The notes: generated by a model not told the origin, from the sequence alone. A stretch of DNA of 64,000 nt from an archaeon (GCA_020057405.1 JAGVFW010000013.1:64001-128000); one strand, 5' to 3'; shown: positions 24,419-56,552, numbered from the stretch's first letter. Translations and numbers: made by a program.

Positions 24419-25948
24419 GTGGGATGGGTTTTGGCGGCAGCGGTACTGCTTGCAGTGGTCGGGATGGCGGCGGGGGAGAGTGTGCAAGAGATTGTCGCCG
24501 CTACAAACTTGCTTGACAACACTCGACCCGCGTTCCAGCTAGTGCAGGCGGCTAACGCCAACTTGACTTGCTGCGGCAAAGGCCCGCCAGTAGGGGCCGC
24601 CAACGCAAGCTCGCCTGCCGGAACTACGTTTGCGAAGCTCGTGGACTTTAGCCCAAGTGTTTTTGACGTGCTTTCTGGCGAGCTCGTGCTCAATCAAACT
24701 GGCAATGTCACTACCTTTGCTTCTGCGACAATACTCAAGCCGCAGTTAAGCGGGCAAGGCGACTGCAAGACAGTGAAGCTGCTTTCAACAGTAAACTCGA
24801 GCCTGACCCTAACGCAAGTGCCGCAGGGAAAAGTTCTTGCGAGAACAGGACACTTTGAGTCCCCGCAACTTGACTTTAATTCCTTTCAAAACTATTCCGC
24901 CGGTTGGCCAAGGCGAGGGCGCACGGAGCTGCCGTACGACTTGGACGGCGGGGAAGGAAAAGAAGCGCTCGGCTTGAGGCTCAACTACTCGGTTCAAGCG
25001 ACTTTCACCGTAGCGCACTACAAGAACGTGCAACACCGAGTTTGTTTCATCACTTGTTTCTACTACTGGACCTGCGACTACTCAAGCCAAGAACAAAAAG
25101 CCTACCTCTTAGCTGCAGTTCAAACGCAAAACGCATCGTACTACGCAGGAGGGCCCGGGGCCGAGTCGGTAGAAGAACTCGCAAGCGGGGGACTTACGTC
25201 AAACACGACGATTGAGATGAAGACGCCATTCGACTACGTGAAAATCACGGCCGGCGCCGCCACTGCGAAAATCCGCACTGCCGCTTTCCCCCTTTCGTAT
25301 GAGAATTCAAGTTACGAGTTCATCAGGATAAACGCAGTGCCAACGCACGCCAGCGAGACAGTGGGTGCACGTATTTTGAGGGAGTCGAAGTTAGGCACTA
25401 CAGTAAATTTGGAAGTTTGGTTTCCTGCTTCATCACAAGCGCAAGTGCTCCTGCAAACGCCATTCGCGGAGGTACGCTTGGCTGCCAGCATAAGCCGGGT
25501 TAGTGCGGAAAGACTGGCCGTCATCGCAGCGCGGAGCGGTCGGGCTGGAGAGAAAATTAACGCGACTGCTAGCGTAACTTTTGAAAACGGCTCGCCTGTT
25601 GAAGGCAGGCTGGTGAAATTCACTTTGCCGGAATCGGCTGGTTACGACGCGATGACCAACGGCAGCGGGTTGGCCGTCGCGAGCTTTTTGATGCCTGAAG
25701 GGCAAAACGCGGTCGTGAAGGCAAGCGAATCAAACGGGGCGCGGGAGCTCGAGGCGCAAAGCACGGTTTTCGTGCAAAACTCTTCTCCTCGGCTGCTTCT
25801 CGACTACGCCCAACTGGCCTTAGCCTGCGCGATTGGATTTTGGTGCATTCTTTTCGGGCTTGGCTTGCGCCGTGAAGCGAGTCATGCACTTGGGACAGGG
25901 CTTGCTTGTGCGGCAATGCTGTTTGTCGCCTACTCGGTGGTCGGATGA
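24419..25948 (+). CDS. Secreted, membrane-anchored protein with an Ig-like domain (start approximate)
   Basis: N-terminal hydrophobic signal, Cys pairs, NGSPVEGRLVKF Big-1-like segment and two C-terminal TM helices. Confidence 0.6.
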   Translation: MGWVLAAAVLLAVVGMAAGESVQEIVAATNLLDNTRPAFQLVQAANANLTCCGKGPPVGAANASSPAGTTFAKLVDFSPSVFDVLSGELVLNQTGNVTTFASATILKPQLSGQGDCKTVKLLSTVNSSLTLTQVPQGKVLARTGHFESPQLDFNSFQNYSAGWPRRGRTELPYDLDGGEGKEALGLRLNYSVQATFTVAHYKNVQHRVCFITCFYYWTCDYSSQEQKAYLLAAVQTQNASYYAGGPGAESVEELASGGLTSNTTIEMKTPFDYVKITAGAATAKIRTAAFPLSYENSSYEFIRINAVPTHASETVGARILRESKLGTTVNLEVWFPASSQAQVLLQTPFAEVRLAASISRVSAERLAVIAARSGRAGEKINATASVTFENGSPVEGRLVKFTLPESAGYDAMTNGSGLAVASFLMPEGQNAVVKASESNGARELEAQSTVFVQNSSPRLLLDYAQLALACAIGFWCILFGLGLRREASHALGTGLACAAMLFVAYSVVG

Positions 25949-26859
25949 AGGTATCTGCTATTGCGGTTGCTGCGCTCTTGCTAACGGGTTTTGCCAGCGC
26001 CTTTGACGGATGCCAGGACAACGGCTGCAACGATTTGCTGTGCAAGATTGCGGGATTGCCAAACGCGATTCAGTGCGCGCTGGAAACCGGGATAGCAAGC
26101 CAGCTTGAAAACGCGGTGACCGGCATTCTCTCGCGGGTCACGCAGTTTATTGTCGGAAGCCCGCCCCTTGACGGCAGTTCGACTAGGGAACTGTTTTCGC
26201 TCGTGTCGTTTTTGGTCGAACTCTTGTTCGTGCCAATCCTGATGCTAAACGGCTTGAAGCTCACGTACTCGAGCATGTTTAGCGCGCAAGAACGCGCGGA
26301 GGCAAAAGACGAGGTAAGGCAAGTTCTCGTGGCAATGGTGCTCGTGTGGGCGGCCTACGACTTGTACGCGCTTGCAACTGACGCGACAAACGCTTTTTCC
26401 GCCGCTTTGGCCCCGAGCCAGGCGGACTGGAATAATGCAGTAAACGCGAGTGCGGGCTTGTCCGGAATTGGGAACCTGGTTTTGCTCGGGTTAATCGTGT
26501 TTTCGCTACAGTTTTTCGCGTTTACGGCTTTCGCGAGATATATTCTGGCTTACGTCGGGCTCTTTACGCTAGTAATCTCGATGCCGCTTGAGGCGCTTCC
26601 CGCAACTTCCGGAATTGGTAGGGCAATGCGGAACCTAGTCGTGGCAAACTTCATCGTGCAAATTCTCCAGGCACTTTTCCTCAAAATTGCGGTAACAAGC
26701 ATCGCGGACTTGAACACGAGCTACACTTACAAGTTCGCTTTCATTACGGGAGTTCTTTTGGTCGGGGCACTGGCGGGAATAGTGGTTTACGCCGCGGCCC
26801 TGCTTTCGTCAATTTCGAGGAGTCCGGCCGCTAGGATGCTTGCTTACGCGGCGAGGTGA
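25945..26859 (+). CDS. Polytopic membrane protein, VirB6/TrbL/CedA-like
   Basis: Signal peptide and about 6 TM segments; position between the pilin and PrgI/VirB4 genes. Confidence 0.6.
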   Translation: MKVSAIAVAALLLTGFASAFDGCQDNGCNDLLCKIAGLPNAIQCALETGIASQLENAVTGILSRVTQFIVGSPPLDGSSTRELFSLVSFLVELLFVPILMLNGLKLTYSSMFSAQERAEAKDEVRQVLVAMVLVWAAYDLYALATDATNAFSAALAPSQADWNNAVNASAGLSGIGNLVLLGLIVFSLQFFAFTAFARYILAYVGLFTLVISMPLEALPATSGIGRAMRNLVVANFIVQILQALFLKIAVTSIADLNTSYTYKFAFITGVLLVGALAGIVVYAAALLSSISRSPAARMLAYAAR

Positions 26860-26865
26860 AAATAA

Positions 26866-27900
26866 ATGGAAGGGGAGTTTGGAAAAGGGCTGTTGTACGA
26901 AGTGCCGGAGGAACTCCGCCACGAGGAGCGGGTGCTGTGGGTGTTTTCGTTACGGCAACTGCTCATACTCCTGCCATTTGCCATCGTGGCGCTGGCTTGC
27001 TTCCTGGGACTCGAGAACCTGGACTTTAAGGCGCGGCTCGCGATTCCGGCAATCATCTTATTTGCGGGTTATGCGCTTGCCTGCATTAAACCCGTGCAAG
27101 AGGCGGCTTGGCGCCACGTCAAGTACTTGATCACGCCTAGGCGGACAAGCTGGCGCGAGCCCCTCGCATCCGCTCACTTCGTCGGGGTTGAGGAAGTAAA
27201 AGCCAACGCGGTCTTCACTTCTGACGGCCACCTGCTTTCAGTGCTTTTGGTGACGCCCCTTGACTACAGCGTGCTTGGAGAGGACCAGAAGCACGCGCTC
27301 GTCTACGGCTACCGCTCGTTTCTAAACGCAATCTCGTTTCCAGTGCAGGTGGTGATGCGCACGACGAAAGTCAACTTGAAAGAGTATTTTGCGAAAGCCA
27401 AGGCAAAGGCCGCTAAGGCGGGTGATTCTGCGGCGCTATTGGAAATTAGCAAGTTCGAGCAGTTCGTCGAAGACTTCATCTCTTCGCGGGGAGTCAATGA
27501 CCGGCTGTTTTACCTCGTAATCCCGCAGGAGAAGGGAAAAGACCTCGAAAAGTCGTTGCGAGAGCTTGAAAACAAGACTGCCGTGTGCTGCGAAAAACTG
27601 GCGGCAATCGGCATTGCGTGCCGGAGGCTGGACGACAACTCACTAGTCTCGCTTTACGCAAGCTTTTTCGGGGGATTCGTGGAAGCCGGAGCCGATTACC
27701 TATCGCTCTTGACTTTCCTTGACTTTGCGCAAGAGCAACGGGAAAAACTCGAGGCTGCGGGAGCGAAAATGCGGGCTAAAGCCGTTTTCATTGGAATGGA
27801 GGTCGAACAAAGTGCTGGAAAGACTGTTTGGAAGGAAAAGGGAAGAACCGAAGCTCAAGGAAAGGCTATTGCCGTACCTGCTGGCGCCCTCAAGCATTGA
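26866..27900 (+). CDS. PrgI/VirB3-like membrane protein
   Basis: YEVPEEL..EERV..FSLRQL plus 2 TM helices, then FLNAISFPVQV, typical of PrgI-type fusions. Confidence 0.7.
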   Translation: MEGEFGKGLLYEVPEELRHEERVLWVFSLRQLLILLPFAIVALACFLGLENLDFKARLAIPAIILFAGYALACIKPVQEAAWRHVKYLITPRRTSWREPLASAHFVGVEEVKANAVFTSDGHLLSVLLVTPLDYSVLGEDQKHALVYGYRSFLNAISFPVQVVMRTTKVNLKEYFAKAKAKAAKAGDSAALLEISKFEQFVEDFISSRGVNDRLFYLVIPQEKGKDLEKSLRELENKTAVCCEKLAAIGIACRRLDDNSLVSLYASFFGGFVEAGADYLSLLTFLDFAQEQREKLEAAGAKMRAKAVFIGMEVEQSAGKTVWKEKGRTEAQGKAIAVPAGALKH

Positions 27901-30097
27901 AAACAAGCCAGACTACATAAAAATCGGCGAGCAGTATTGCCGCGTAATCGCAGTGCTTGGCGTCCCGCGAGTTGTGCGCGCTGGTTTTCTTAACGCGCTG
28001 ATGATGCAGCAAGGCGATTTTGACGTGAGCATTCACGCTAGCCCGCGGCAAGTTGAGGACACTATAGCTGAACTAAACCACGAGCTGGTCAAGATGGCCG
28101 CGGACCTCTACTCGATGGAAAGCAGGGGCGACGTGGTGCCACCTAGCCTGAAAATGAAGTACGACGACACTATGCGCATCCTACAGCTGCTGCAAAGCGG
28201 GGAGGAAAAGCTCTTCGACTTCTCCCTCTACATCAACATTCGTGCAAAAAGCCCGGAAAAACTAGACGAGATGACCGGGAGAATGGGCGCGACCCTAGGG
28301 CAACTGGCGCTTCTTTACAAGACTATGGATTTGCAGATGCACGAAGCGCTTCCAAGCGTCCTCCCAATCGCCAGAAACCGGCTCGGCATCACCCGAAACA
28401 TGACGAGCTCGGCCCTCGCAGCGTGCTTCCCCTTCACAACAAGCAACCTGCAGGTAATGGAAAACGGGATAGTAATGGGCGTAAACGACCTCACAGGCAT
28501 TCCGATAATCATAGACTTGCACGCCCTCCAGAATTCAAACGCCTTGGTGCTCGGAGGCAGCGGCAGCGGAAAGAGCTTCAGCGTAAAAACCATTCTCTTG
28601 CGCTTGAGGCGCAACGGCACGCGCGTCTACGTAATAGACCCGCAAGGAGAGTACGCCAAGCTCGCCAAGAAATTTGGAAAAGGCGCGCAAGTAGTCGGAT
28701 TCAACCCGCAAGACAACAACGCGATAAACCCATTTGACCTAAACGGGCTGCGGCTAAGTGAGAAAGTCCACTCGCTGATGAGCCTATACTCCATAATTTG
28801 CGGCGAACTTTCCCCGGCCCAAAAAAGCCTGCTTGACGAAGCCACTTACGCAATTTACGAGGAACGCGGAATAAGTGACTTTACGCAAGCGAATGAAAAA
28901 ACTAGGATGCCGACCTTTCGCGACCTGCACGACTACTTCAGCAAGAAAGCAAACTCGCCGAATGACCTGATGCAGTCGCGTTCAACTGCTTTGGCGCTCT
29001 TAAACCGCGTAAAACCGTTCGCGACCGGCTCGATGAAGTGCTTCGACTCGCAGACTAGCGTAGACCTGGCGGCTGACTTCGTCGTTTTTGACGTCTCCTA
29101 CTTTATCGACAAGATGCAGACGGTCGCGCCCCCCGCGATGTTCATCGTACTCGACTTTTTACTCAACAAGATGAAGGAAGACTCACGCCAGAGAAAAGCA
29201 ATAGTGGTCGACGAAGCCTGGCGCCTTTTGCGTGGCCCCAGCATTTCGGAATACCTCCTCTTGTTCGCAAAAACAGCCAGGAAGTACAACACTTCCCTAC
29301 AAATAATCACCCAAGAACTAGGCGACCTTGGCAAAAGCGAGGCCGGAGCGGCGGTTCTGGCCAACACGTCAGTAAAACTAGTGCTGAGGCAAGAACCCTC
29401 TGAAATAGAAGCCGTTGGAAATGCGCTCAAGCTAAACGCGAACGAAAAAAACCGCCTTCTCTCGGCACAACCGGGCCACGGCGTGCTGTTCATCGAGAAT
29501 TCCCGCATTCCGTACTACAGCATCCACATGCCTGAAGAAAAGGAATTCATTTCAACAAAACCAGAAGAAATGACGAGCCTAGAAAAAGAACACGCGGTCG
29601 TCAGGGCGGTTGAAGAGCAAGCGCCATTCGAGAAACTCGACTTCGAGAACGGCTTTTACAAGCGCGGCGACCTCACGCCCGGAGAGGTCATGCTATTGCT
29701 CAAAAATGGCTTTACCGTGGCGACAGCCTACGACATTCGGCTCATGCGGCCAGTTGACTTCGTAGTAAAACCCAAGGCACCGGAAAGCGCGCAGCACACA
29801 ATCTACGTGACTCAAGTCGAACGCCTAATTCGAGAACACACATCTAACGTAAAGGTGAACGTGGGCAACGATGCCGACATCGTCTTTGTTGACAAAGACG
29901 GTAAGAAAATTGCGCTCGAAATTGAGACGGGAATGCGGCGCGACTACCTGCTCAAAGCCAACTCCGCACACCTGCGAAAGTACGACGAGGTATACTTCCT
30001 GGTTACGAGCGTGCACTTGGTGGAAAAATACCGGAAAATAGGGAGGGTGCTGACGAGGTCGGAAGTCCAGAGGTTTGTGGAAGAGAGATTGAACTAG
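27812..30097 (+). CDS. virB4: VirB4/TraC-like ATPase with a C-terminal PD-(D/E)xK-like extension
   Basis: GGSGSGKS, IDPQGEY, INPFD, VVDEAW and ARKY. GGAGG ribosome-binding site precedes GTG 27812. Tail DADIVF...ALEIETG. Confidence 0.85.
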   Translation: MLERLFGRKREEPKLKERLLPYLLAPSSIENKPDYIKIGEQYCRVIAVLGVPRVVRAGFLNALMMQQGDFDVSIHASPRQVEDTIAELNHELVKMAADLYSMESRGDVVPPSLKMKYDDTMRILQLLQSGEEKLFDFSLYINIRAKSPEKLDEMTGRMGATLGQLALLYKTMDLQMHEALPSVLPIARNRLGITRNMTSSALAACFPFTTSNLQVMENGIVMGVNDLTGIPIIIDLHALQNSNALVLGGSGSGKSFSVKTILLRLRRNGTRVYVIDPQGEYAKLAKKFGKGAQVVGFNPQDNNAINPFDLNGLRLSEKVHSLMSLYSIICGELSPAQKSLLDEATYAIYEERGISDFTQANEKTRMPTFRDLHDYFSKKANSPNDLMQSRSTALALLNRVKPFATGSMKCFDSQTSVDLAADFVVFDVSYFIDKMQTVAPPAMFIVLDFLLNKMKEDSRQRKAIVVDEAWRLLRGPSISEYLLLFAKTARKYNTSLQIITQELGDLGKSEAGAAVLANTSVKLVLRQEPSEIEAVGNALKLNANEKNRLLSAQPGHGVLFIENSRIPYYSIHMPEEKEFISTKPEEMTSLEKEHAVVRAVEEQAPFEKLDFENGFYKRGDLTPGEVMLLLKNGFTVATAYDIRLMRPVDFVVKPKAPESAQHTIYVTQVERLIREHTSNVKVNVGNDADIVFVDKDGKKIALEIETGMRRDYLLKANSAHLRKYDEVYFLVTSVHLVEKYRKIGRVLTRSEVQRFVEERLN

Positions 30098-30150
30098 CCC
30101 GGAAAGGTGCTTTCGCAAGCAATTTAAACACGCACTACAACTTATTATAG

Positions 30151-30399
30151 GTGATTACAGTGGATTATACTACCATTCAAATCAGCACAAACATCCGCAA
30201 TAGGCTTACTGAACTCAAAGACTCGCCCCGCCAGACTTACGACGAGGTTCTAGAAAAGCTCATAGAACTTGTCCCGAAAGGAGATGAAGAAGGAGAATAC
30301 AAACCCGCTTTCAGAGGCAGCATCCTGCGCGGACTCCTTGACGCACGACACTCGAAAACCACAGCGCTGGCAGAACTGGAGAAACAATTCGGAACGTGA
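30151..30399 (+). CDS. Antitoxin (RHH-like)
   Basis: TTIQIS...LKDSPRQTYDEVL; coupled to relE. Confidence 0.7.
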   Translation: MITVDYTTIQISTNIRNRLTELKDSPRQTYDEVLEKLIELVPKGDEEGEYKPAFRGSILRGLLDARHSKTTALAELEKQFGT

Positions 30400-30656
30400 A
30401 ACTCATGGCCTACTCCGTTCAGTTTTCGCAGGAAGCACGGGCAAACCTAGAGAAACTAGATCCACCTACGGCACGCAGAGTGATTGAAAAAATAAAGGTT
30501 GCAGCGGCAGACCCCTTTCACTATTTCAAGCGGTTAACCAACAGCGAACTCTACAAGCTTCGCGCCGGCGATTGGCGCATCCTCGCACTCATCAACCCCA
30601 CAAACGATACCCTATTCATCGTCACCCTAGGTCATCGTAAGAACATCTACGAGTAG
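30396..30656 (+). CDS. relE: RelE/ParE family toxin
   Basis: YKLRAGDWRIL...LGHRKNIY. Confidence 0.88.
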   Translation: MKLMAYSVQFSQEARANLEKLDPPTARRVIEKIKVAAADPFHYFKRLTNSELYKLRAGDWRILALINPTNDTLFIVTLGHRKNIYE

Positions 30657-32347
30657 GGCAAGCCGTCAGCCACTTCTAGTGCTTTCTCCCTCACCATCGC
30701 CGCCGACAATCCAGCGTCAACCACGCGAATTAACCTCCATCCTTTTTTGGCCAACAGCGTTTCCTTTTCTCCGTCGCGTGCTTTTTGCTTGTCCTTTGCG
30801 TGAAAGAACGCCCCATCCCACTCCACCGCAAGCTTCCTTTCAGGAAAAGTGACGTCAATCTCGAAAGGCGGTAACACCGTCCTGTCGGAAAAAACTATCT
30901 TCTCGGCCGGCAAAAGCCTGCGAAGCTCTTCATAAAACAAGCGCTGGTTGAAGGAACCGGAAATGAACGGCGCCTCGGCTTCAGCGTTCTCCTTCACGCC
31001 GTCCTCCCACAACGGCTTAACGCGCACTTTAGTCACCTCACGCTTGACACTCGTCGAGAAAAGCGCCTCGAACTGCTGAAGGGAATGCAATTCCTCCTCA
31101 ACCAACCTCGCCTTGTCAGAATACTTTCCGCCGCAAAGCAAAGCAACCGCGTAAGCAGCGTCGTCAGGCTCGCGCGTCAAAAACACGGCATTAACCGCAC
31201 AGTTAGCTGCAAGCGCCGGGTCAAGCGCTTTCACGCTCTGGCTTACGACAATCAAACCGAGCCGAAACTTTCGCGCTTCGCGTAATACCGTCGCGACGTA
31301 CGACGGCTCTTCTTCAGTGCCAACGCAGAGCTTCTGCGCCTCATCTACCAAAGCAAACAAAACCGGCAGGTTTTCAAGCGACTGACAGTAAGAATAGAGC
31401 TTACGCAAGAAAACCTCGGCAAAAACAGCTTGCGCGTCAGCCGACCGCAACCCCTTAAGCTCAAAACAACAGGTCTGACCCGTGACAACCGAAAACGGAA
31501 CCTGCGTTTTTGAAGAGAACACCCCGCTTAGAGAAATCATGTCGAGCCTGCGCTTCAACGAAAAGAGACTCGCGTCCGGCTTCTTCTGGCTCGACAAAAG
31601 AAAACTACAGTACGCCGACACTTCAGGAAGAGAAGGCGGCCGCCTGTTCCACGAACCCCTATCACCATCGCGAAAACCCCGCTCCTCAAACGCACCCTTG
31701 ACGCATTTGGCCAAAAAATACGCTTGAATATCCCCAAGCCCTAAAACCCGCTTTAACATGGAAGAGCTTTCCGCAGATTTTTCAGCCGGCGTACAACCAT
31801 CCAACTCAAAAAGCGCAAGATTGACTTTTCGAGCATCAAACACCCGCCCCCCACACGCACGAACGACGCCAGCGTACTCCTCGTGCGGGTCAAGCACGAC
31901 CACTGGCGCCCCCGCTTTCGTCAACCCATAAACCAAGCGCTTCGCCAAAGTCGACTTACCAGAACCACTCGCCCCCACAATCAAGGTGGAAGGCGCCTGC
32001 TCCTTAGAGTAGTCGACGGAATAACCCCTAAACAATAATGGACTTACCCACGCGAAATCCGTTCGAGGCGAAGAACTCCCACGCGCATACAACCGCTTCA
32101 AGAGCCACAACCACGGAAAAGCGAAGTAAAACGCGGTTTTCGCAACGTTCGACGCAGTAAAACTACCCGTCTTGCGCAACACCCACCTAACTTTACCTAT
32201 CTTGACACTAACATTTTCCATCTTTGCCAACTCCGACGCGAGCTGCAAAACTTTTTTCCGGGAAAAGCCCGCGTCAAAGCCACGGCGAAGGCGCGCCGCG
32301 AGCCTTAAACTCCTTAGCGAGCCCACAAAGGCGAAGCGACCGCCCAA
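30647..32347 (-). CDS. HerA/VirD4-like P-loop ATPase with a C-terminal DUF559/Vsr-like endonuclease
   Basis: GASGSGKS, LDPHEEY, VDEAQ and EARKF; tail EIDVTFPERKLAVEWDGAFFH...D..K..GWRLIRV. Confidence 0.8.
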   Translation of the reverse strand: MGGRFAFVGSLRSLRLAARLRRGFDAGFSRKKVLQLASELAKMENVSVKIGKVRWVLRKTGSFTASNVAKTAFYFAFPWLWLLKRLYARGSSSPRTDFAWVSPLLFRGYSVDYSKEQAPSTLIVGASGSGKSTLAKRLVYGLTKAGAPVVVLDPHEEYAGVVRACGGRVFDARKVNLALFELDGCTPAEKSAESSSMLKRVLGLGDIQAYFLAKCVKGAFEERGFRDGDRGSWNRRPPSLPEVSAYCSFLLSSQKKPDASLFSLKRRLDMISLSGVFSSKTQVPFSVVTGQTCCFELKGLRSADAQAVFAEVFLRKLYSYCQSLENLPVLFALVDEAQKLCVGTEEEPSYVATVLREARKFRLGLIVVSQSVKALDPALAANCAVNAVFLTREPDDAAYAVALLCGGKYSDKARLVEEELHSLQQFEALFSTSVKREVTKVRVKPLWEDGVKENAEAEAPFISGSFNQRLFYEELRRLLPAEKIVFSDRTVLPPFEIDVTFPERKLAVEWDGAFFHAKDKQKARDGEKETLLAKKGWRLIRVVDAGLSAAMVREKALEVADGLPYS

Positions 32348-41810: not shown

Positions 41811-42737
41811 GTGGGCTTGCAGGCAACTATCATCGGGGCAGGAAGGACAGGCAGCAGAATAGCTGCCGCACTGGCAAAAACCAGCCTGACGCTGACGATA
41901 ATCGACCGCGACTGCCTGGAAGAAAGCGACCTGACCGACAGCCCCGTTTACGGCCGCGCCGACTTGGGCAAAATGAAGGCCGAGGCGCTCGCAAAACACG
42001 TTGGCGCATACGGAACTCCGATTTGCGAACACTTGTGCGCACAAAACATCGACGAACTGCTTGAAGGCACCCGAATCGTGCTTGACGCTACCGACAACTG
42101 GCACGCCCGCGCGCTAGTCAACGAATGGTGCTGGAAAACCAAAACCCCATGGATCTACTCGGGCGCCCTGGCCGCAAAAGCCATGGCTAGCGCCATCACC
42201 CCACCCCAAAAACCATGCTGGCTTTGTTGGAATGCGATTGAACCCACCCAAGTGCTAAGCTGCAGCACGAGCGGCATCGACGGACGCGCGGCAGACGCGG
42301 CCGCGCAAAAGGCGGTCGAACAAGCGCAAGCGATTGCGCAAGAAAAACGGCCAGAGCTGGCGGGAAAACTGTTTTTCGCCGATGTCGGAAAAAAAGTGGA
42401 GACGCAAACCCCCCTTGTCGCAAACCCGGAATGCCCGGTCTGCGCAAAGGGCAAGCTTCCGCTGCTTAACGGAACGGAAACGGCGCAACTCGTGTGTGGA
42501 AGCGGGCAATGGCTCTTTCTGAATGTGGGCCTGAAGGAAAAAGTTAGGCACTACACCGTACAAGCGCTCGCGGCGAAACTTGGCCGCGGGGCAACGGCAA
42601 TTGAAAGCGTGGTGCAAATAACGCGGGAAAAAGCAAGCGCCATCGTTTTTCCCGGCGGACGCGCCACAATAAGGGCAAAGGACGAGCCTGCCGCACGCAA
42701 GCTCAACGACGAGATTGCCGAGCGCCTCTCCGCGTAA
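41811..42737 (+). CDS. ThiF/MoeB/E1-like adenylyltransferase
   Basis: IIGAGRTG, IDRD, DATDN, CWLC and CPVC. Confidence 0.85.
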   Translation: MGLQATIIGAGRTGSRIAAALAKTSLTLTIIDRDCLEESDLTDSPVYGRADLGKMKAEALAKHVGAYGTPICEHLCAQNIDELLEGTRIVLDATDNWHARALVNEWCWKTKTPWIYSGALAAKAMASAITPPQKPCWLCWNAIEPTQVLSCSTSGIDGRAADAAAQKAVEQAQAIAQEKRPELAGKLFFADVGKKVETQTPLVANPECPVCAKGKLPLLNGTETAQLVCGSGQWLFLNVGLKEKVRHYTVQALAAKLGRGATAIESVVQITREKASAIVFPGGRATIRAKDEPAARKLNDEIAERLSA

Positions 42738-45250: not shown

Positions 45251-45325
45251 AGCGGGGTAGGGTAGCCAGGAGTGCCCGCTGGGCTCATAACCCGGAGACC
45301 ACAGGTTCAAATCCTGTCCCCGCTA
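45251..45325 (+). tRNA. Initiator tRNA-Met(CAT)
   Basis: A1-U72 pair, GGG/CCC in the anticodon stem, CAT anticodon and TTCAAAT T-loop. Confidence 0.93.
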
Positions 45326-45508
45326 CCTACTTTTCTTCCGCTTAGCTTGGGGCTTGGTCCGTTTCTTGCGCGCGAAAACTTTGGCTGGCGGCTGCTGGCT
45401 TCCGAAGTACCTGAGCACTTTTTGCATCACACGGCCATTGACGCGCTTGCTCTCGACTAAGTAGTAGTAGAGGTTGCCCTTGATTTTCTTGCTGCGCACG
45501 AATGCCAT
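45323..45508 (-). CDS. 61-aa basic beta-sheet DNA-binding-like protein (resembles the IS1634 transposase N-terminus)
   Basis: MAFVRSKKIKGNLYYYLVESKRVNGRVMQKVLRYFG followed by a Lys/Arg-rich tail. Confidence 0.65.
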   Translation of the reverse strand: MAFVRSKKIKGNLYYYLVESKRVNGRVMQKVLRYFGSQQPPAKVFARKKRTKPQAKRKKSR

Positions 45509-45566
45509 GGAAAAAGTTAGGCACTACAGGAATAAAAAGCGCTCGCTGGAAAAAGTTAGGCACTAC
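45508..45566 (+). repeat. 20-bp direct repeat TGGAAAAAGTTAGGCACTAC (x2)
   Basis: Exact copies at 45508-45527 and 45547-45566. Confidence 0.85.
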
Positions 45567-45889: not shown

Positions 45890-45910
45890 TACTATAACCA
45901 ACCCCTTGCT

Positions 45911-49568: not shown

Positions 49569-49658
49569 AGTCGGGCAATTTATGGGCGCACCCCACCCAA
49601 ACAATGCCCGATTACCAGAACTGCGGGGCGGGTCAAACTTCCTTCTCATCCCGAATCA

Positions 49659-50048
49659 TCAGAGTATGACAAAGGAAATGGGTTTGCCCTTCGAGCTGAA
49701 AGCCGCAGTCATGCCCACGGAGTAGGGTGGGCCGGAAGCAATCAAGTGCGCGCGGCCGTAACGGCCGAACAGGTGCAGGTCCGCAGACGACGGTCGCGCC
49801 GGGCTGTTGGGGTGCGAGTGGAACGTTCCAACGATGCCTGCCGAAAGCGGGACGTTAACCGAGTCAAACCACACGCTAGAGGAATTGGCTTCCGAAAGCG
49901 GCGCGAGATAGAGTTTTTCGACAATCACGTCCTCGCCATCGTAGCGGCCGGGAAACAGGCCGAGAAACTCGTTCGGGTAGCTGTTGGCCGCGCCAAGCAG
50001 GCAACTTTCAAAAACATCGCGCGGGAGCAGGAGTCGCATCAAAATCAC
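49659..50048 (-). CDS. JAMM/MPN+ metalloprotease
   Basis: PNE...FHSHP...PS.AD JAMM motif. Confidence 0.9.
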   Translation of the reverse strand: MILMRLLLPRDVFESCLLGAANSYPNEFLGLFPGRYDGEDVIVEKLYLAPLSEANSSSVWFDSVNVPLSAGIVGTFHSHPNSPARPSSADLHLFGRYGRAHLIASGPPYSVGMTAAFSSKGKPISFVIL

Positions 50049-50153
50049 TCTTTGTAGTGCCTAACTTTCCTTCCTCATCCACGGGCGCCCGGTTTCTGTC
50101 ACTGCGGTTCCCCCTTACTGTTATTAAGTTGCTTGCCTACATATACTTTCATA

Positions 50154-50504
50154 ATGACTGTATTTTCCTGCAGCAATTGCGCCTTTCGTTTCGAGGGCGA
50201 CGCGCCCAAGGCGTGCCCGCGCTGTGCAAGTATTGACATTACTGAATTCCGCCAGACGCGTCACGAGCGTGGAGGCGTAACTATCGTCCGCGAGGAACGC
50301 CCGGCGCCCGAAGGCACGGACGGGAAGCCCCACAAACTAATGCACTACCGTGAGGGCAAGGCGGGCTGGCAGGACTTCCACAATCAACAGTCGACCGCGT
50401 GCCCCAACTGTGGGGGCACCGAATTCGACCGAGACGCCAAACGCAAGGAAAAAGTCTGCCGCAAGTGCGGCGAAGTCATGCCCCTCCCGCGCAGGTACGC
50501 GTAG
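50154..50504 (+). CDS. Double Zn-ribbon protein
   Basis: CSNC/CPRC and CPNC/CRKC pairs. Confidence 0.7.
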   Translation: MTVFSCSNCAFRFEGDAPKACPRCASIDITEFRQTRHERGGVTIVREERPAPEGTDGKPHKLMHYREGKAGWQDFHNQQSTACPNCGGTEFDRDAKRKEKVCRKCGEVMPLPRRYA

Positions 50505-50534
50505 CTTTAGCTTCTTTTCTTCCTGTGCACTAAA

Positions 50535-51953
50535 TTAGTATTGCTGGCGCGAGCGGTAGTACTGGTAGGAAAGCGCGCCCGCCACTGCGACTAGGAGTGC
50601 AAATCCAATCAACTCGGCAGTCGAGACGCCGGGAATCTGCTGCGAGAGCGACGCGGGCGAACTCGCTTGCTTGTCAAGGGCATCGCGTTCGGCGACAAGC
50701 CGCGCCGTGACGTTCTGGAAATCAGCGCGCGAGGCGTTTCCGTTGATGCGCAGGTTCTGCTCGAGCACTATAAAGTCGGTTTCAAGTCGCGTTACGCGGT
50801 CGGCAATTTGCTGCGCGTTGTTAGGGTCCGAGTTCGCAAGTGCCCGTCCCGCCGGTTCCTCGATGGCAGACAGCGCCCTTGTGGCGGTACGGTAGTCCCC
50901 AAGCACGGCCCCCGCAGCGCTAATCCGGCCAATCGCGTGCGCGTACGCTTTCGAAAACTCACGAGTCTTTGTGATTGCGTCGTCGTACGTAGTCGCGTCA
51001 GAGCTGGCAAGCGTGCGTAGGTTTTCCTCGTCCGAGAATGAAAAGAGCGAGCGAGCGCCGCGAACGGAAGTAAATTCGCTGTTGAATTCAGAGGCGCTCG
51101 TGCTATACTCGTCAAGGCGGGAAATCGCCCACGTGGAGTAGTAGGGGGCGGCCCCGCGCGTTAGCGTCGCCGCGACCTTGGCGCGAATCGCATCCTTGCC
51201 CGCGGTCGTATCGGCGTCAATGTAGGCTCCTGCGATGTCGCTCATCCTGTCAAGGTCCGCCGACCCAAGGGTACAGCGGTTTAGCCGGCCGTTAGTGGCA
51301 AACGGGGGGTACGCAACCATGTGCAAGTGCTGGGTGGTAAAGAGCCCATACCCGGCCTTGGCTTTTCCAAGCGCCGTTGCCGCTGCTCCCGCGGCAGTCG
51401 CGTCGCCAGTCTCAAGCGCGCGGCCTGCAGCTTCCAAGTCGCTTGCGGCGAGGGTCATTTCAGCAAGGCCGGCGTCAATCCCGGCCTTGGCTTCGACAAT
51501 GGAGAAACTGATGATGCCCCGCCACAAGCCGGTGCCCCAAAGGTAGCCGCAGCGGAACTTGTAGTAGCTGGTTTCCATGCAGTTGGACCCGGCGCCGGAG
51601 GCAAAATCGTCGTAAACTTGCCGGCACACGGCAACTCCGTTCCCCAAAGCAGTCGCCCGCGCACTGAATTCCTTGGCTTCTGCGGGGGAAATCGCCAGCC
51701 GCACGTCGCTTAGGGCCTCAACCGCTTCGTCGGGTGAGAGCGGCCCGCCCGTGACGTTATCCAAAAGCACGAGTGAACCCACCGAGCCCTTCACGACGAC
51801 CGCCCAACCATCGGCGTAGTGCACAGTTGGTGAGTCAACCACGTCCTCGTTAGGCAGCAAAAACGCCCTTGCGTCATCCGCTGGAGACGCCCAAGCTAGG
51901 GGCGCAAACAGGGCGGTCCACGCAAGCAAAAGTAAGGCGGCAAATCGGCGCAT
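50535..51953 (-). CDS. Secreted helical protein with a C-terminal TM anchor
   Basis: Signal peptide, Cys pairs, and a C-terminal TM helix followed by a short tail. Confidence 0.7.
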   Translation of the reverse strand: MRRFAALLLLAWTALFAPLAWASPADDARAFLLPNEDVVDSPTVHYADGWAVVVKGSVGSLVLLDNVTGGPLSPDEAVEALSDVRLAISPAEAKEFSARATALGNGVAVCRQVYDDFASGAGSNCMETSYYKFRCGYLWGTGLWRGIISFSIVEAKAGIDAGLAEMTLAASDLEAAGRALETGDATAAGAAATALGKAKAGYGLFTTQHLHMVAYPPFATNGRLNRCTLGSADLDRMSDIAGAYIDADTTAGKDAIRAKVAATLTRGAAPYYSTWAISRLDEYSTSASEFNSEFTSVRGARSLFSFSDEENLRTLASSDATTYDDAITKTREFSKAYAHAIGRISAAGAVLGDYRTATRALSAIEEPAGRALANSDPNNAQQIADRVTRLETDFIVLEQNLRINGNASRADFQNVTARLVAERDALDKQASSPASLSQQIPGVSTAELIGFALLVAVAGALSYQYYRSRQQY

Positions 51954-52078
51954 TGCACCAACCTCACTCTACGCGCGCTTTTAATTCTATACGGCAAGGG
52001 GGCCGCAATTACTGGGGTTAAAAGCAGCCCTGCGGGCAAAAGCAACCTTAAATGTATTACCTTGCGGTACATGTTGTT

Positions 52079-52789
52079 ATGGGAAAAAAAGAGGGCCTAG
52101 ACCTAGTTTGGTCGGGCGCGACATCGGGTGCTTACGCAGCGTGCTTTGGTAAGTGGCGAAAGGTGACCGAAGTCTATGGCATGCTCTACGGCAAGGAAGG
52201 TCAAGCCTACAATACCGGCCGCGTGTCTGTAGCAATCAAGCAGCTGGCCAAGGCGGGGTTTCTCAAGGCCGCCAAGCACCCCAGCACAACCTGGCGGCTC
52301 TACACTTCGACACTTGAGCCCCTCTTCACCGAAGCGGAGCTTTACGGCGTCGAATTCGACGACAAGCAAAAGCAATTCATTGAAGCTTACCTTGGATGCG
52401 CTGCCGGAAAGCCCATTGGCGCGCTTATAACTCCCCGAATTGCCTTTGTCAAGAAAGCGCCCTTCCCTGCAATGGAGCGGATGCGCGCCGAACTCTCGGC
52501 CCTCGTGTCGCTTGCCCTAGTCCACTTGTTTTTCAAGCAGCTAGAGGGCTATAAAATCCAGGCCTACGTCGAAGCACTATCCGAAACCCTTGGGAAGGAA
52601 GGCAAGGACGTAAAGCCGCTAAGTGCGTCTCCCGCAAGCGACGTGGCCGCCCGCCTTGCCCTGGAGGCCAAGGAAGAGCTGGCCAAGGCCGGGGGCAAGC
52701 CCGAGGGAACCGCCCTTTTCCGCCTCATCAAGTACCTTTACCCCGGCGCCTACGTCGAGCTCCTAGAGCTTGGCCGCCAGGCGGTTTGA
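52079..52789 (+). CDS. Hypothetical protein, N-terminal wHTH-like
   Basis: VSVAIKQLAKAGFL helix-wing pattern. Confidence 0.5.
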   Translation: MGKKEGLDLVWSGATSGAYAACFGKWRKVTEVYGMLYGKEGQAYNTGRVSVAIKQLAKAGFLKAAKHPSTTWRLYTSTLEPLFTEAELYGVEFDDKQKQFIEAYLGCAAGKPIGALITPRIAFVKKAPFPAMERMRAELSALVSLALVHLFFKQLEGYKIQAYVEALSETLGKEGKDVKPLSASPASDVAARLALEAKEELAKAGGKPEGTALFRLIKYLYPGAYVELLELGRQAV

Positions 52790-52856
52790 AAAAGCTTATT
52801 ACCCAGTTCCGACCCAATAAGTAGTGCTAGTTTTCGTGTTTAGTGAGGTAAAATAG

Positions 52857-53345
52857 ATGATGAACCAAGGCGGCGTCAGGCCGCTTAACAAGCGTTGGCT
52901 GACTTCATTTAGGAAGGAAAAGAAACTCGAAGACTACCTCCTAGTGGGCGAGCCGCTCGTCCAGTGGCTGACGCAAAAAGGCGAGTGGCGCAAGCTTCTA
53001 GTCCGCTGCACCGCAATCGAGTGCCTCGCAGTGTTCAAGCACGCGCGCCTCAAGCGGAGGCTCAACGTCGTCATCCGCGGCAAGGGCGGAGAGTTCAACA
53101 ACTTCACCGAATCGCTAGGCGAGCTTGTCTTCCTTACCGACCGCCTCGGCGCTGCCGACTACGCGGCACTGGCGTTTCCCGTCAGCATGAAGACGCTCAT
53201 CGTCAGCCAGGCGCAGAACATGCCCGCGAACTGGAAGAAACTCGGCAAGACTTTTAACGCAACTCACGTCTTCTTCGTCTCCGAAACCCAGCCCACCGCG
53301 GTTGAGGAAATCTCGTGGGACGGCGTCCTCAAGCAAAAAGTCTGA
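52857..53345 (+). CDS. Hypothetical protein, degenerate PD-(D/E)xK-like fold
   Basis: IECLAV...VIRGKG...SLGEL...AALAFP pattern. Confidence 0.45.
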   Translation: MMNQGGVRPLNKRWLTSFRKEKKLEDYLLVGEPLVQWLTQKGEWRKLLVRCTAIECLAVFKHARLKRRLNVVIRGKGGEFNNFTESLGELVFLTDRLGAADYAALAFPVSMKTLIVSQAQNMPANWKKLGKTFNATHVFFVSETQPTAVEEISWDGVLKQKV

Positions 53346-53350
53346 AGTTC

Positions 53351-54013
53351 ATGGACTCGCTTAAAGTCCGCGACGCCAAGATAACGTGGCTCGGTCACGC
53401 GACCTTCACCGTTGACTGGCAAGGGGGCCGCGCGTGCTTCGATCCCTTTCTATTGCCCCCCTCTGCCCCAAAGGCAGCTTGCGACCTCGTGCTTGTCACG
53501 CACGAGCACTTCGACCACTGCAACCCAGAAAAGCTGGCGCGCGTTAGCAACGCGAGCACGACCGTAGTTTGCGGGCCCAACTGCGCAGCCAAATTCTCGC
53601 AACTGAACCTGAAGACAACCGAGCTTACCGCGGGCCAGTCGGCAACCGTAGCCGGAGTGAAAATCATAGCAGTGCCCGCCTACAACGTGGCAAAGCCGTT
53701 CCATCCCCGCGGCCTCGGTGTTGGATTCGTCGCCGACTTTGGTGGGGTGAAAATCTACCATGCCGGTGACACCGACCACATTCCGGAAATGAAATCATTT
53801 GCGGCAATGAAAATAGACGTGGCGCTCTTGCCAATCGGCGGTCACTACACTATGGACTCGGAGGAAGCCGCCCGCGCCGCAAACGACATTGCCCCCGCTT
53901 TCGTCGTGCCAATGCACTACGGCACGATGCCCGAAATCAAGGGCGATGTCAAGGCATTCGCTGCCCTTGTCGAAAAGAAAACAAAAGTAGTGGAGCTAGA
54001 GCCGCTAAAGTAA
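53351..54013 (+). CDS. MBL-fold metallo-hydrolase (UPF0173-like)
   Basis: WLGHA, THEHFDH, YHAGDT and PMHY. Confidence 0.9.
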   Translation: MDSLKVRDAKITWLGHATFTVDWQGGRACFDPFLLPPSAPKAACDLVLVTHEHFDHCNPEKLARVSNASTTVVCGPNCAAKFSQLNLKTTELTAGQSATVAGVKIIAVPAYNVAKPFHPRGLGVGFVADFGGVKIYHAGDTDHIPEMKSFAAMKIDVALLPIGGHYTMDSEEAARAANDIAPAFVVPMHYGTMPEIKGDVKAFAALVEKKTKVVELEPLK

Positions 54014-54041
54014 AAACCGCGGGAAACGAAGGCCCGCGGCC

Positions 54042-54500
54042 TTAGCGCTTTCGTTTAAGCTTCTTTTTCACGCTCTTCTTGGCCGCGTGCTTTCTCACAC
54101 GGGCCTTGAGGCGCGCCTCAGCTTTGGAACCCGTCAGCTTCACGGGCTTTCTCCGGCCCGCGGCCCCCCGTTTTGCAGCGTGCTTTACCGAACCTGTCAC
54201 GCGCTCGATTGCCTCAATCAAGCGGCCGATGAGGTTCCCTCGCGTAGGTTCCCTGTCGACTGGCGTCATGTCGCGCCCGTGGTGCTTTGGCTGCGCCCCG
54301 TGGCTGGCTGTGATTCGCTTCCCGCACTTACGGCACACGAATTCGAGTGTGGCCCCGCGCCTGTCACCGACCGTGGCGGCAGTGTTCTCGCCCCCATCGT
54401 CATCGTATTCCTTAGGGTTCATGCGCTCGTCGAGGTCATCCGCCTCGTGCACCTCGCGCGCCTCTTCTTCAGCAATAGCTTCCTTCAAGTCCCGTGCCAT
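54042..54500 (-). CDS. Hypothetical protein: acidic N-terminus, CxxC motif, Lys/Arg-rich tail
   Basis: AGGTGA ribosome-binding site; CRKC...HHG; basic C-terminus. Confidence 0.6.
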   Translation of the reverse strand: MARDLKEAIAEEEAREVHEADDLDERMNPKEYDDDGGENTAATVGDRRGATLEFVCRKCGKRITASHGAQPKHHGRDMTPVDREPTRGNLIGRLIEAIERVTGSVKHAAKRGAAGRRKPVKLTGSKAEARLKARVRKHAAKKSVKKKLKRKR

Positions 54501-54611
54501 TTCTCATCACCTGCTTATGTTATAGTGCAACGTAGTGGTGAAATAAAAAAGAGAAGCAAGGGCGGAAAACAAAAAGAAGAAGGAATTGGGGCGTTTGCCC
54601 CGTTTCCGAAC

Positions 54612-54773
54612 TTAGGGCTTCTTCATCAAGTTCTTGCGCTTTACGAATGCCCAGAGCTTCTTGGTCATTTCGCTTGGCGCGATTGGACTCGTGCCGAAGA
54701 CTTCGCCGACTGTAGTGTCCTTGACACTTGCGAAGCCGACGGTAATGCCGCCGAATGGTTTCTTAACTACCAT
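54612..54773 (-). CDS. 53-aa SWIB/MDM2-like protein (not in ORF track)
   Basis: MVVKKPFGG...VFGTSPIAPSEMTKKLWAFVKRKNL. AGGTGA ribosome-binding site; downstream GGGGC-AAAC-GCCCC hairpin. Confidence 0.75.
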   Translation of the reverse strand: MVVKKPFGGITVGFASVKDTTVGEVFGTSPIAPSEMTKKLWAFVKRKNLMKKP

Positions 54774-54928
54774 TTACATCACCTATTTTTTAATTGGATC
54801 CCGTCGAAGCAACGCGCGTCGCCCCTTCCCCGGAAAACCAAAATCCTTACCCCCCCTCCCTTTAAATAGGTAGTGTTTTTCTCCCTCGCAAAAAACAGTT
54901 TAAACACTTTGCCCGCGTAACGCATTTC

Positions 54929-56446
54929 ATGCCCCGGCGCATACCTGCGACAATGGCAACCCAGCATCCCGACAACGCCGCGGCGCCCGCGTGGCTTGCC
55001 GCAAGCGATGGCTTCATCGACACGCGCCACGAAATCGAGGAGTGCCACCGTTCGTTTGCCGAGTTAGGCTGCACGGAATACATGTGGGACTGGGAAGGCA
55101 AGCACGTCGACGAGGCCGTAATCGAGCGTCTGCTTGAAAAGCACCATGCCTTCTTTTCACGCCACCAGCTTGGCAAAGACCTTTTCCTGACTTACCGGCT
55201 GCCAAACGTCTGGGTCGAGAAGGGCTACCGCATCGCAAGGGCCTTTGCTTCAATCATCAGCGCCAATGACGTGGCCCGCGAGGTAAAACTCCAATGCCCG
55301 CCTGTCTTCGAATGCATTTTGCCCCTGACGACTACTGGCGCTCAGCCTTACCTCGTGCGCCGCCAGTACGCCGCCATCGCAAAAGCCTTTGGCGGCGAGG
55401 AAATCTCAAAAGCGTTTGCACTAGAGAAAGTCGGCCCCGCCGACGTCCGCGTCATTCCGCTCATCGAGCATCCCGATAACCTGATTGGGGCAGACGAGAT
55501 CCTCTCCGACTACGCCAAGGCCTGCGAGCAAGCGCACTTTCCACTCGATTACCTGCGCGTGTTCATTGCCCGAAGCGACCCCGCGCTCAACATGGGCCTA
55601 TCTTCGGCTGTAATCGCCTCAAAGGCGGCGCTTTCCCGCTGCGCCGAGTTTGAAGAAGAGTCGGGCATTCCAGTCCACCCGATGATCGGCGTCGGTTGCC
55701 TGCCTTTCCGCGGCGGTCTCTCGCCGGAAACGGCAACCGCGTTTGCGAAAATGCACGAAGGAACGCACACTTACTCCATCCAGTCGGCCTTCCGCTACGA
55801 TTATCCCCAAGCGCAAGTCAAAAAGGCAATTCGGGTGCTAAACGGCCGTCGGCGCAGCCGCTCGCCTGACAGTTTCGACTACCGAAAGCTAGCCAAGCTC
55901 TCCAACATCTTCAGCAAGCACTACCAGCACGTCATCGCGGGTGCGGCAACCACCATCAACAAGGCCGCGGCGTTCACTCCCGGCCGCCGCGAGCGCAAGC
56001 TGCACATAGGCCTCTTCGGTTATTCGCGCAAAGTCGGTACAAATGCCCTCCCGCGCGCAATAGGCTTTACTTGCGCCGCATATTCGCTTGGCGTTCCCCC
56101 CGAACTTTTCGGAACCGGCCGAGGCATTGCCGAGGCAAGGAAGGCGGGGTTGGGCGAGGAGCTCGAGGCATTCTGGCCGCTTTTGCACTCCAACATCCGC
56201 TCGGCAGGCTACTACCTCAACAAGGAGAACCTCGCGATGCTTTCAGCCGGCAATTCCGCGTGGAAGGGAGTCCAGCAGGACGTGCGGTTCCTTGAGGAGT
56301 TCATCGGCGAGCCGCTCGGCCCCCTTGACGAAGACCACTTCGTCCACCGAAACCTCACGAGCAACATCCTGCTGCTATTGCGCAAGGGCCGCGACTGCAA
56401 GGAAGACGTCGTGAGAGCGGCCAAAGTCAGAAGAAGCGTCGGATAG
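54929..56446 (+). CDS. ppcA: Archaeal-type phosphoenolpyruvate carboxylase
   Basis: IPATMATQHPDNA, MWDWEGK, FIARSDPA, QSAFRYD and PRAIGF. Confidence 0.95.
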   Translation: MPRRIPATMATQHPDNAAAPAWLAASDGFIDTRHEIEECHRSFAELGCTEYMWDWEGKHVDEAVIERLLEKHHAFFSRHQLGKDLFLTYRLPNVWVEKGYRIARAFASIISANDVAREVKLQCPPVFECILPLTTTGAQPYLVRRQYAAIAKAFGGEEISKAFALEKVGPADVRVIPLIEHPDNLIGADEILSDYAKACEQAHFPLDYLRVFIARSDPALNMGLSSAVIASKAALSRCAEFEEESGIPVHPMIGVGCLPFRGGLSPETATAFAKMHEGTHTYSIQSAFRYDYPQAQVKKAIRVLNGRRRSRSPDSFDYRKLAKLSNIFSKHYQHVIAGAATTINKAAAFTPGRRERKLHIGLFGYSRKVGTNALPRAIGFTCAAYSLGVPPELFGTGRGIAEARKAGLGEELEAFWPLLHSNIRSAGYYLNKENLAMLSAGNSAWKGVQQDVRFLEEFIGEPLGPLDEDHFVHRNLTSNILLLLRKGRDCKEDVVRAAKVRRSVG

Positions 56447-56470
56447 CGTGTTCCGCCTGCCGTTTTTGTT

Positions 56471-56552
56471 TGTAGTGCCTAACTTGGCGTGCGCTGATTG
56501 GCCTGTAGTGCCTAACTGTGTTAGCCGGGCTTGCCGTTTGTAGTGCCTAACT
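56471..56552 (-). repeat. Three 14-bp repeats TGTAGTGCCTAACT with 19-21-nt spacers
   Basis: Copies at 56471, 56504 and 56539, between convergent ppcA and minD. Confidence 0.85.

Follow-up and report, generated by a model that had tools for sequence, protein, structure and literature searches.

A short DNA word dispersed along the chromosome of an archaeon is probably the specific binding site, or operator, of a small basic protein whose own gene lies beside two of its copies. The word was first noticed in a stretch of 64,000 nucleotides (GCA_020057405.1, JAGVFW010000013.1:64001-128000), here called the window, which is C17:64001-128000 of the genome designated G000 (assembly of 1,224,631 bp in 17 contigs, 90.6% complete). 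The word reads A(G/T)TTAGGCACTAC(A/G), and its putative reader is a protein of 61 amino acids (aa) encoded at 45323-45508. The original prediction, made from the window alone, had taken the copies for polar chromosome-architecture sites near a replication origin. A genuine dispersed and conserved DNA signal remains of that proposal; the polarity and the association with an origin do not.

What the dispersed sites do is a separate question, and we divide our weight roughly equally between gene regulation and chromosome organization. To our knowledge, very little is known of either process in DPANN-type archaea, which are not growable alone and to which G000 presumably belongs. The present case pairs a widespread, unnamed and putative DNA-binding domain with an exact recognition word. 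Related genomes offer what appears to be a stepwise view of how a private operator for self-repression can become a genome-wide set of sites, and with only 61 residues in the protein and 24 perfectly defined sites the system offers an unusually easy way in.

A dispersed signal at the DNA level

The window holds eight exact copies of the 13-mer AGTTAGGCACTAC, and 100 dinucleotide-preserving shuffles of the window hold none. Allowing up to two mismatches adds just two matches, both with two mismatches and none with one. All eight positions and strands in the original prediction are correct (Table 1). The copies at 25389 and 42542 do lie inside genes, as had been stated, i.e. in an open reading frame (ORF) of 585 aa and in a ThiF-family gene; the remaining six are intergenic.

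How is the word distributed in the genome as a whole? G000 has 21 exact 13-mers and 24 copies of the 12-mer core GTTAGGCACTAC, which is the most frequent 12-mer in the 1.22 Mb; 1000 random permutations of the core average 0.115 copies each, with a maximum of 4. There are no copies with one mismatch, although this is not significant by itself, as 11% of the permuted control words also have none. A profile of the flanks, based on the 24 G000 sites and 60 sites from loci of relatives, has an A-rich 5' side; in G000 an A precedes the core at 21 of the 24 sites and an A follows it at 21. The copies are unevenly spread, with eight of the 24 falling within 31 kb and none on the 111-kb contig C14.

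Sixteen of the 24 copies are inside genes, eight in sense and eight in antisense, and they use exactly the three stop-free frames (sense LGTT and VRHY; antisense VVPN). The genes that carry them have ordinary housekeeping functions, e.g. those of PheRS-beta, SerRS, HerA, PfkB, HhH-GPD glycosylase, phosphoenolpyruvate (PEP) synthase and ThiF. The other eight copies lie at five intergenic places, three of them promoter or start regions and two between converging genes. The motif is a signal acting at the DNA level and not at that of RNA or protein; an RNA-level signal does not fit because strand use is equal. Might the copies belong to a family of miniature inverted repeat transposable elements (MITEs), the alternative that the original prediction had itself raised? 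They do not. Apart from A-richness the flanks of the copies are unrelated, and copies sit in frame inside housekeeping genes, which rules out a MITE and speaks against other mobile repeats. The original prediction knew of no description of the motif in archaea; in line with this, a literature search for the 12-mer, forward and as reverse complement, found no paper.

Two other words are over-represented in G000. The 12-mer CCGGCAAGCCAC has 15 copies, e.g. at C17:66962 (window 2962), C17:25084 and C10:57494, usually followed by GCCGAAAG or GGCGAAAG and then by an AT-rich box; it looks like a shared promoter-upstream element. The word CTCCCCCTGCAC(TTAGAC) has 13 copies (C1:12219 and C16:59160 among them), six of which lie within 8 kb on C6 (C6:79609-87246) with CTAGAC/GTCTAG on their flanks; one copy directly continues a tRNA-like sequence, being joined to its 3' end. 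This element may be an attachment site or MITE-like.

The word travels with a beta-sheet domain

Sixty-eight genomes of the order, all draft assemblies, were compared. The 11-mer TTAGGCACTAC is present in 16-30 copies in nine of them and in no more than three copies in any one of the remaining 59. Those nine comprise G000, G001, G002, G003 and G005 of family f1 and G017, G021, G025 and G033 of family f6; across genomes, position 1 of the 12-mer is G or T. Examination of related genomes, which had been proposed as a check, thus finds the motif conserved as a dispersed signal in nine members of the order. The 61-aa protein has largely the same distribution. Its full-length stand-alone form is found in seven of the nine site-rich genomes, with a fragment at a contig end in G001, and in none of the 59 site-poor ones. 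Four site-poor members of families f1 and f6 (G004, G006, G011 and G029) are without the protein and without the sites, and of these G011 is 90% complete in five contigs.

In the site-poor genomes of the order the domain heads Fic proteins of ~305 aa. The whole genome holds just one to three copies of [G/T]TAGGCACTAC in G019, G038 and G061, all of genus g19, and likewise in G018, and a copy is located 9-12 bp upstream of the domain-headed Fic gene; G033, although site-rich, has one there too. The order of elements in the Fic promoters is GTAGTGGGGAA, TATA box, TAGGCACTAC, ATG, with variant right halves TTCGCCACTAC and TTCTCCACTAC in G023 and G004. G022 has an inverted pair upstream of a small homologue, the single genomic copy of G056 overlaps the stop codon of a Fic fusion, and in L060, the locus of a distant homologue, the TATA box is enclosed by a different inverted repeat. 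Comparison across genomes shows that the domain and the word travel together, the word being in what reads as an operator position at the domain's own genes, whether these are stand-alone (G000, G002, G025) or fused to Fic (G018, G019, G033, G038, G061). The Fic gene of G000 itself (C6:73332-74063) is without the N-terminal beta-sheet domain, which is present there only as the free 61-aa protein.

The original prediction had named three candidates for DNA pull-down. For the 61-aa protein the comparison offers strong support as a putative reader. It offers none for the winged helix-turn-helix (wHTH) protein, whose gene is present in 63 of the 68 genomes with or without the motif, and little for MinD, whose adjacency to motif copies is not kept even in the sister genome G001.

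The 61-aa protein and its promoter

Orthologues of the 61-aa protein are 46-62% identical. In an alignment of eight, 16 residues are invariant within the first 36 positions, and the Lys/Arg-rich tails vary. AlphaFold2, run with the eight-sequence alignment, predicts a three-stranded antiparallel sheet (strands 2-9, 12-23 and 26-36) and a disordered tail; the block-mean pLDDT (predicted local distance difference test) is 91-94 for residues 1-30 and 87 for residues 31-40.

In the direction of the small gene its promoter reads site, TATA-like TTTTTATT, site, ATG, and the 20-nt unit TGGAAAAAGTTAGGCACTAC is repeated exactly at the proximal and distal copies. Orthologous genes in G002 (L003) and G025 (L011/L015) are preceded by the same layout, and the gene fragment at a contig end of G001 (L049) has two upstream copies. 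The arrangement of site, TATA-like box, site and ATG recurs in four genera. No sequencing run was listed for window 44500-47500. In G005 one copy is inside the small gene itself. G003 (L017, G003:C30, ~1410-1500) has four tandem copies with a 24-bp period inside the 3' part of the small ORF; these would encode VVPKTRG-like repeats of the protein tail. A PRC-barrel gene (window 45569-45901) is directly beside the operator pair of G000. PRC-barrel proteins are tied to archaeal cell division in haloarchaea.

What is this domain? A profile search of 1.84 billion representative proteins gave 2369 matches at E <= 0.001, with the domain nearly always N-terminal. No Pfam model matched it in five family members (up to E = 5) or in the 73 homologues scanned, and no NCBIfam model covers the 61-aa protein or its homologues. 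A word-index protein search with the 61-aa protein returned only two proteins, and a search for related loci with this single sequence gave one distant locus. The family profile run against PDB sequences gave a chance match alone (E = 7.2), and the ESM Atlas gave only clusters labelled 'hypothetical protein'. The Pfam name 'DUF6788', borne by 21% of a single Atlas cluster with weak similarity, led to no paper. The literature on DPANN nucleoid proteins and on Fic DNA-binding heads, as far as its text was available, yielded nothing relevant. The beta-sheet domain of the 61-aa protein is an uncharacterized, undescribed family. By Pfam, the longer members that bear it include proteins with Fic domains, fusions to Uma2 and DnaJ, one integrase-like protein (P0098) and, as a weak match, one DDE transposase-like protein (P0147). 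Its place at the head of P0098 and, more weakly, of P0147 fits a DNA-binding role.

Individual sites

Several single sites are recognizable in more than one genus. The copy at 42542 in the ThiF gene has 15 nt identical at the matching position in genus g2 (G002), where the surrounding protein has diverged. A copy in enolase is at the same codon positions in G017 and G025, again with diverged protein flanks, and is missing from G000. G000 and G002 share the spot of a copy in the HhH-GPD gene, but its strand is opposite and its frame different in the two genomes. The place of a site is thus kept, and its strand is apparently irrelevant. Judged by such positions, individual sites are old.

The sites also gather near the small gene. 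By our own count, 33 of 191 sites in eight genomes are within 10 kb of it, a 20-kb span being ~2% of each assembly. The figures are 4 of 24 for G000, 2 of 23 for G001 (on a 4-kb contig), 5 of 28 for G002, 7 of 19 for G003, 2 of 16 for G005, 5 of 30 for G017, 4 of 28 for G021 and 4 of 23 for G025.

Proposed mechanism and objections

If the 61-aa protein reads the word, how might it act? One protein would occupy each asymmetric site, the beta-sheet reading the exact 11-12 bp and the basic tail possibly lying on the A-rich 5' flank. Close neighbours (<=150 bp apart) are direct repeats in 19 of 21 pairs, and this near-universal arrangement suggests head-to-tail loading. One of the two inverted close pairs, in L053 (G005:C1, 3218-3242), has its copies head to head as a perfect 26-bp palindrome. 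At the small gene the TATA-like box sits between two copies, which also cover the start region, so that the protein would be expected to switch off its own synthesis. Repression of the same kind would apply to a few further promoters with a copy at or beside the start codon, that of Lhr above all. The ~20 further sites, kept exactly inside genes or between converging genes, are taken here as putative anchoring points of a site-specific nucleoid-associated protein. The anchored protein could cause local repression or a roadblock, or it could bridge and organize DNA. In evolution, the self-repressing DNA-binding head of archaeal Fic proteins may have become a free protein, with its operator word multiplying in families f1 and f6.

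Several observations weigh against the assignment of the word to the 61-aa protein. The 12-14 exactly specified bases are a lot for one 36-residue sheet. Structural searches gave no DNA-binding relative (Foldseek against the PDB, best E-value 0.29; VIA-align wide, best Z-score 3.1). In genus g17 (G017, G021) the promoter of the small gene has no copy and the nearest is ~0.9 kb away; in G003 and G005 the gene directly follows its upstream gene and has no upstream copy. The assembly of G033, 78% complete, is rich in sites but yielded the Fic-fused form alone. The gene calls come from our own longest-ORF procedure and not from a trained gene finder.

A regulon or an organizer of the chromosome?

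A possible alternative, to which we give a minor but real share of belief, keeps the 61-aa protein as reader and sees in the word no more than the operator through which a transcription factor controls its regulon, possibly one for DNA repair with Lhr at its centre. Promoter copies alone would then matter, and copies in genes or between converging genes would be incidental or act as transcription roadblocks. Copies do lie at or beside the starts of the small gene, of a JAB gene and of Lhr; in G000 the last of these abuts the ATG of the Lhr helicase (0 nt), between Lhr and a divergent 307-aa gene next to UvrB. Sites upstream of Lhr, which count for the preferred reading as well, recur in several genera, at ~12 nt in G001, ~290 nt in G005 and 870 nt in G003, and G021 has a copy at the head of a putative operon that ends in Lhr; no copy was seen upstream of Lhr in G002. 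The Nre gene of G017 and G021 has a tandem pair (period 13 bp) between its TATA box and its start. Other repair genes near sites are those of UvrB, HerA and HhH-GPD in G000, UvrA and UvrC in G021 and NucS in G025, which hints at a repair theme. Against such a regulon, Nre is without a nearby copy in G000, G003 and G005, and the 16 genic copies of G000 are kept exactly, those in ThiF and enolase being at matching positions across genomes. Converging genes are not expected to have a promoter between them, yet several clusters are found in such places: 56472-56552 and C6:41354 in G000, and L008, L009 and L012 in relatives. Nor is the 8:8 orientation relative to transcription that of the phage stoperators discussed below.

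A bolder version of the preferred reading is offered more tentatively still. In two families of small-genome archaea that lack ParB, a freed Fic head of ~60 residues and a 12-bp operator present at 16-30 places might form an 'address system' of the chromosome that anchors or bridges DNA. Such a system would be an independent invention of a SegB/ParB-like organizer, possibly with MinD and the PRC-barrel division proteins as partners.

That the sites are centromere-like or chromosome-organizing in the SegB or parS manner, with the small protein as adaptor and MinD as motor, we regard as doubtful. The site set is like that of Sulfolobus SegB in its 13-bp word length, number, intragenic share and clustering near the gene of the binder. 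No gene of the ParB_N family (PF02195) was found in the 90.6% complete G000, so that the role of ParB seems vacant there, and the place of a site seems to matter where its strand does not. The neighbour of the triple cluster is an archaeal MinD (TIGR01969, 207.7 bits against a cut-off of 201.75), and the three copies lie 13 bp beyond the MinD stop codon. MinD homologues elsewhere have a site within 1-5 kb in G025, G017, G033 and G021, none of them adjacent. The adjacency is not conserved, however: in the sister genome G001 a copy is again 3' of the PEP carboxylase gene but faces a PRC-barrel gene instead of MinD, and in G002 the nearest site is 16 kb away. Also, no site is next to an Orc1/Cdc6 gene. 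The link to MinD is weak.

The same region of G001 (L051, G001:C63) differs from window 45500-56600 in gene order exactly at the motif clusters. There the PRC-barrel gene is flanked by copies and faces PEP carboxylase; in G000 these two genes are 10 kb apart.

Other readers, recombination sites and polar sites

Could something other than the 61-aa protein read the word, the small gene being merely one target? Candidates would be the wHTH protein encoded at 46404-46847, a zinc-ribbon protein or an RNA. The wHTH and zinc-ribbon genes are within the same site-dense block of conserved gene order, which is what speaks for them. The wHTH gene and the neighbouring gene of 138 aa (64 of the 68 genomes) are, however, present regardless of the motif and therefore do not follow it, and the only copies in site-poor genomes are at beta-sheet-domain genes, in five separate genera. 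Another reader is improbable.

We consider it more improbable again that the copies are recombination or mobile-element sites, either arm-type or end sites for an integrase or transposase with the same domain, or remnants of MITEs. The domain does head the integrase-like P0098 and, weakly, the transposase-like P0147, copies are found at gene-order breakpoints between G000 and G001, and direct repeats occur together with the perfect head-to-head pair of L053. But the flanks are unrelated, in-frame copies hold matching positions in conserved genes across genera, and G000 has only the stand-alone 61-aa form and no recombinase with the domain. No similarity to the N-terminal domain of lambda integrase emerged (hhalign probability 0.08%).

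The view that the copies are polar FtsK-orienting polar sequences (KOPS), Chi or Ter sites, with orientation following the direction of replication, is scarcely credible. It arose from the window, where the four left copies are on the plus strand and the four right ones on the minus strand, with a pair of inverted sequences resembling origin recognition boxes (ORB) between them. The switch is real and falls between 46 and 50 kb. Taken as independent units, however, the eight copies number only five, as 45515/45554 and 56472/56505/56540 are tandem clusters. By our count, a single switch or none is seen in 10 of the 32 strand patterns that five units can take; the sorted pattern is thus not significant. 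In G017 one strand of the contigs carries 24 of the 30 copies, which would suit polarity. Yet among pairs of neighbours >150 bp apart on the same contig, in all nine site-rich genomes together, orientation is shared in 40 cases and differs in 38 (26 and 33 with one genome per genus), and random orientation genome-wide is among the outcomes that the original prediction had named as refuting it. Orientation changes repeatedly along the 452-kb contig G021:C9, and it flips twice on the 206-kb contig G000:C6 while cumulative GC skew keeps rising without a turn; the skew mostly mirrors gene strand and carries no usable replication signal. The HhH-GPD site is on opposite strands in two genera. Motifs of the KOPS and Chi type have hundreds of copies per Mb, far above the ~1 site per 50 kb here (24 in 1.22 Mb).

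A link to an origin is likewise not seen. Both Orc1/Cdc6 genes located in G000 (C10:92669-93787 and C17:23981-25000) lie 7 kb or more from any copy, one of them at 7 kb and the other at 60 kb, so that no copy adjoins either. The ORB-like pair (46822-46845 and 49548-49571) consists of 24 nt, 92% complementary, with a GTGGAAGTGA core followed by a G run. These are its sole two copies in G000, 2.7 kb apart and flanking the enolase and phosphoglycerate mutase genes, and the pair adjoins neither Orc1/Cdc6 gene. The AAA_22 gene beside the tandem pair of genus g17 was considered as an Orc1/Cdc6 gene and rejected by NCBIfam; its G000 orthologue (C1:31852-33045) has no adjacent site.

Features of the window

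The coordinates of the motif copies and of the features around the small gene are collected in Table 1. Two intergenic settings can be added. The copy at 50054 ends 5 nt from a GTG and 14 nt from an ATG of the JAB gene, and the triple cluster is between the stop codons of the converging PEP carboxylase (+) and archaeal MinD (-) genes.

Table 1. Motif copies and associated features, with window positions and strands
Feature	Position	Strand	Remarks
Motif copy	25389..25401	+	Inside 585-aa ORF (24191-25948), frame LGTT; ORF without Pfam match
Motif copy	42542..42554	+	Inside ThiF-family gene (41811-42737), frame VRHY
tRNA-Met gene	45251..45327	+	Converges on 3' end of 61-aa gene; arrangement kept in G025 (family f6)
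Gene of 61-aa basic protein, proposed motif reader	45323..45508	-	Beta-sheet at aa 1-36, then Lys/Arg-rich tail
Proximal copy, putative operator	45515..45527	+	Between TATA-like box and ATG at 45508, 6 nt upstream of ATG
TATA-like box TTTTTATT, as read from sequence	45530..45539	-	Between both operator copies; centre ~27 nt upstream of ATG
Distal copy, putative operator	45554..45566	+	39 bp from proximal copy; ends 3 nt from PRC-barrel stop codon
Motif copy	50054..50066	-	In 84-bp gap between divergent JAB-domain gene (49659-50048, -) and zinc-ribbon gene (50133-50504, +)
Three direct copies	56472..56552	-	Starts 56472, 56505 and 56540; spacing 33 and 35 bp

The 585-aa ORF that carries the first copy sits directly upstream of conjugation-like genes of type IV secretion system (T4SS) character (25906-30097). 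The conjugation-like block as a whole (25906-32347) includes a P-loop ATPase of the VirB4/TraG type (27719-30097), as well as weak below-cut-off matches to PrgI (26866-27900) and to a T4SS pilin (25906-26859). A second ATPase, HerA/TraG-like and ending in a nuclease tail, is at 30647-32347. The gene content of the block suggests an integrated conjugative element.

Comparison with known systems

Two identities suggested by other repeated sites were rejected. DNA uptake sequences occur about once per kb, and the present word has one copy per 50 kb. The word is not an ORB or mini-ORB either, as its copies are not clustered beside Orc1/Cdc6 genes. Of structural interest is lambda integrase, whose N-terminal domain is also a small sheet of three strands and recognizes short asymmetric sequences in direct repeat, the arm-type sites. 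The lambda arm-site consensus shares a CACTA core with the present word. The likeness found no support in the comparisons that so small a domain allows: the hhalign probability given above is for the family alignment against residues 1-68 of lambda Int, and no lambda or Tn916 Int N-terminal chain was among the fold matches (best Z-score 3.1).

The parS/ParB, matS/MatP and Noc sites of bacteria number from ~10 to 70, many of them genic, and mark regions of the chromosome; they are palindromes read by helix-turn-helix or ribbon-helix-helix dimers. The present sites are similarly highly specific and many are inside genes. The word, however, is asymmetric, and the ParB_N search of G000 came back empty.

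The likely origin of the system has a counterpart in self-repressing, toxin-antitoxin-like Fic modules with a DNA-binding head. In the relatives the same domain is the N-terminus of Fic, and the promoters have an inverted pair of words around the TATA box. G000 departs from this pattern, as its domain is free of Fic, its Fic is without the domain and its word is present at 24 copies.

The stoperators of Cluster A mycobacteriophages are asymmetric 13-bp sites, up to ~30 per genome, mostly outside promoters and with some true operators among them; sites are also found at the repressor's own gene, the motif varies with the protein between relatives and the sites are predominantly one-way with respect to transcription (PMC6550527). 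The present system has the same asymmetric 13-bp sites, tens per genome, some in promoters and some at the gene of the putative repressor. The differences are the 8 sense and 8 antisense copies, a cellular chromosome instead of a phage and a beta-sheet protein instead of a helix-turn-helix repressor.

By analogy of their sites, the closest counterpart appears to be the SegB sites of Sulfolobus (SegAB). The SegB study describes a 13-bp word at 32-49 sites per chromosome, >80% of them intragenic and clustered near segAB; the word is a palindrome, TCTAGA-S-TCTAGA with an AGA-S-TCT core, and SegB is in an operon with the ParA-type SegA (10.1101/2025.02.07.637068). In a comparison of the sites, the present word differs in being asymmetric and of another sequence, the small gene stands alone by a tRNA gene, and the ATPase that neighbours the triple cluster matches archaeal MinD and not SegA. 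What the two appear to share is a 13-bp word at tens of sites (24 per 1.2 Mb), mostly intragenic (16 of 24), clustered at the gene of the binder and conserved across genera. If the dispersed sites do organize the chromosome, they would make up the second system of this kind in archaea, with an origin independent of SegB.

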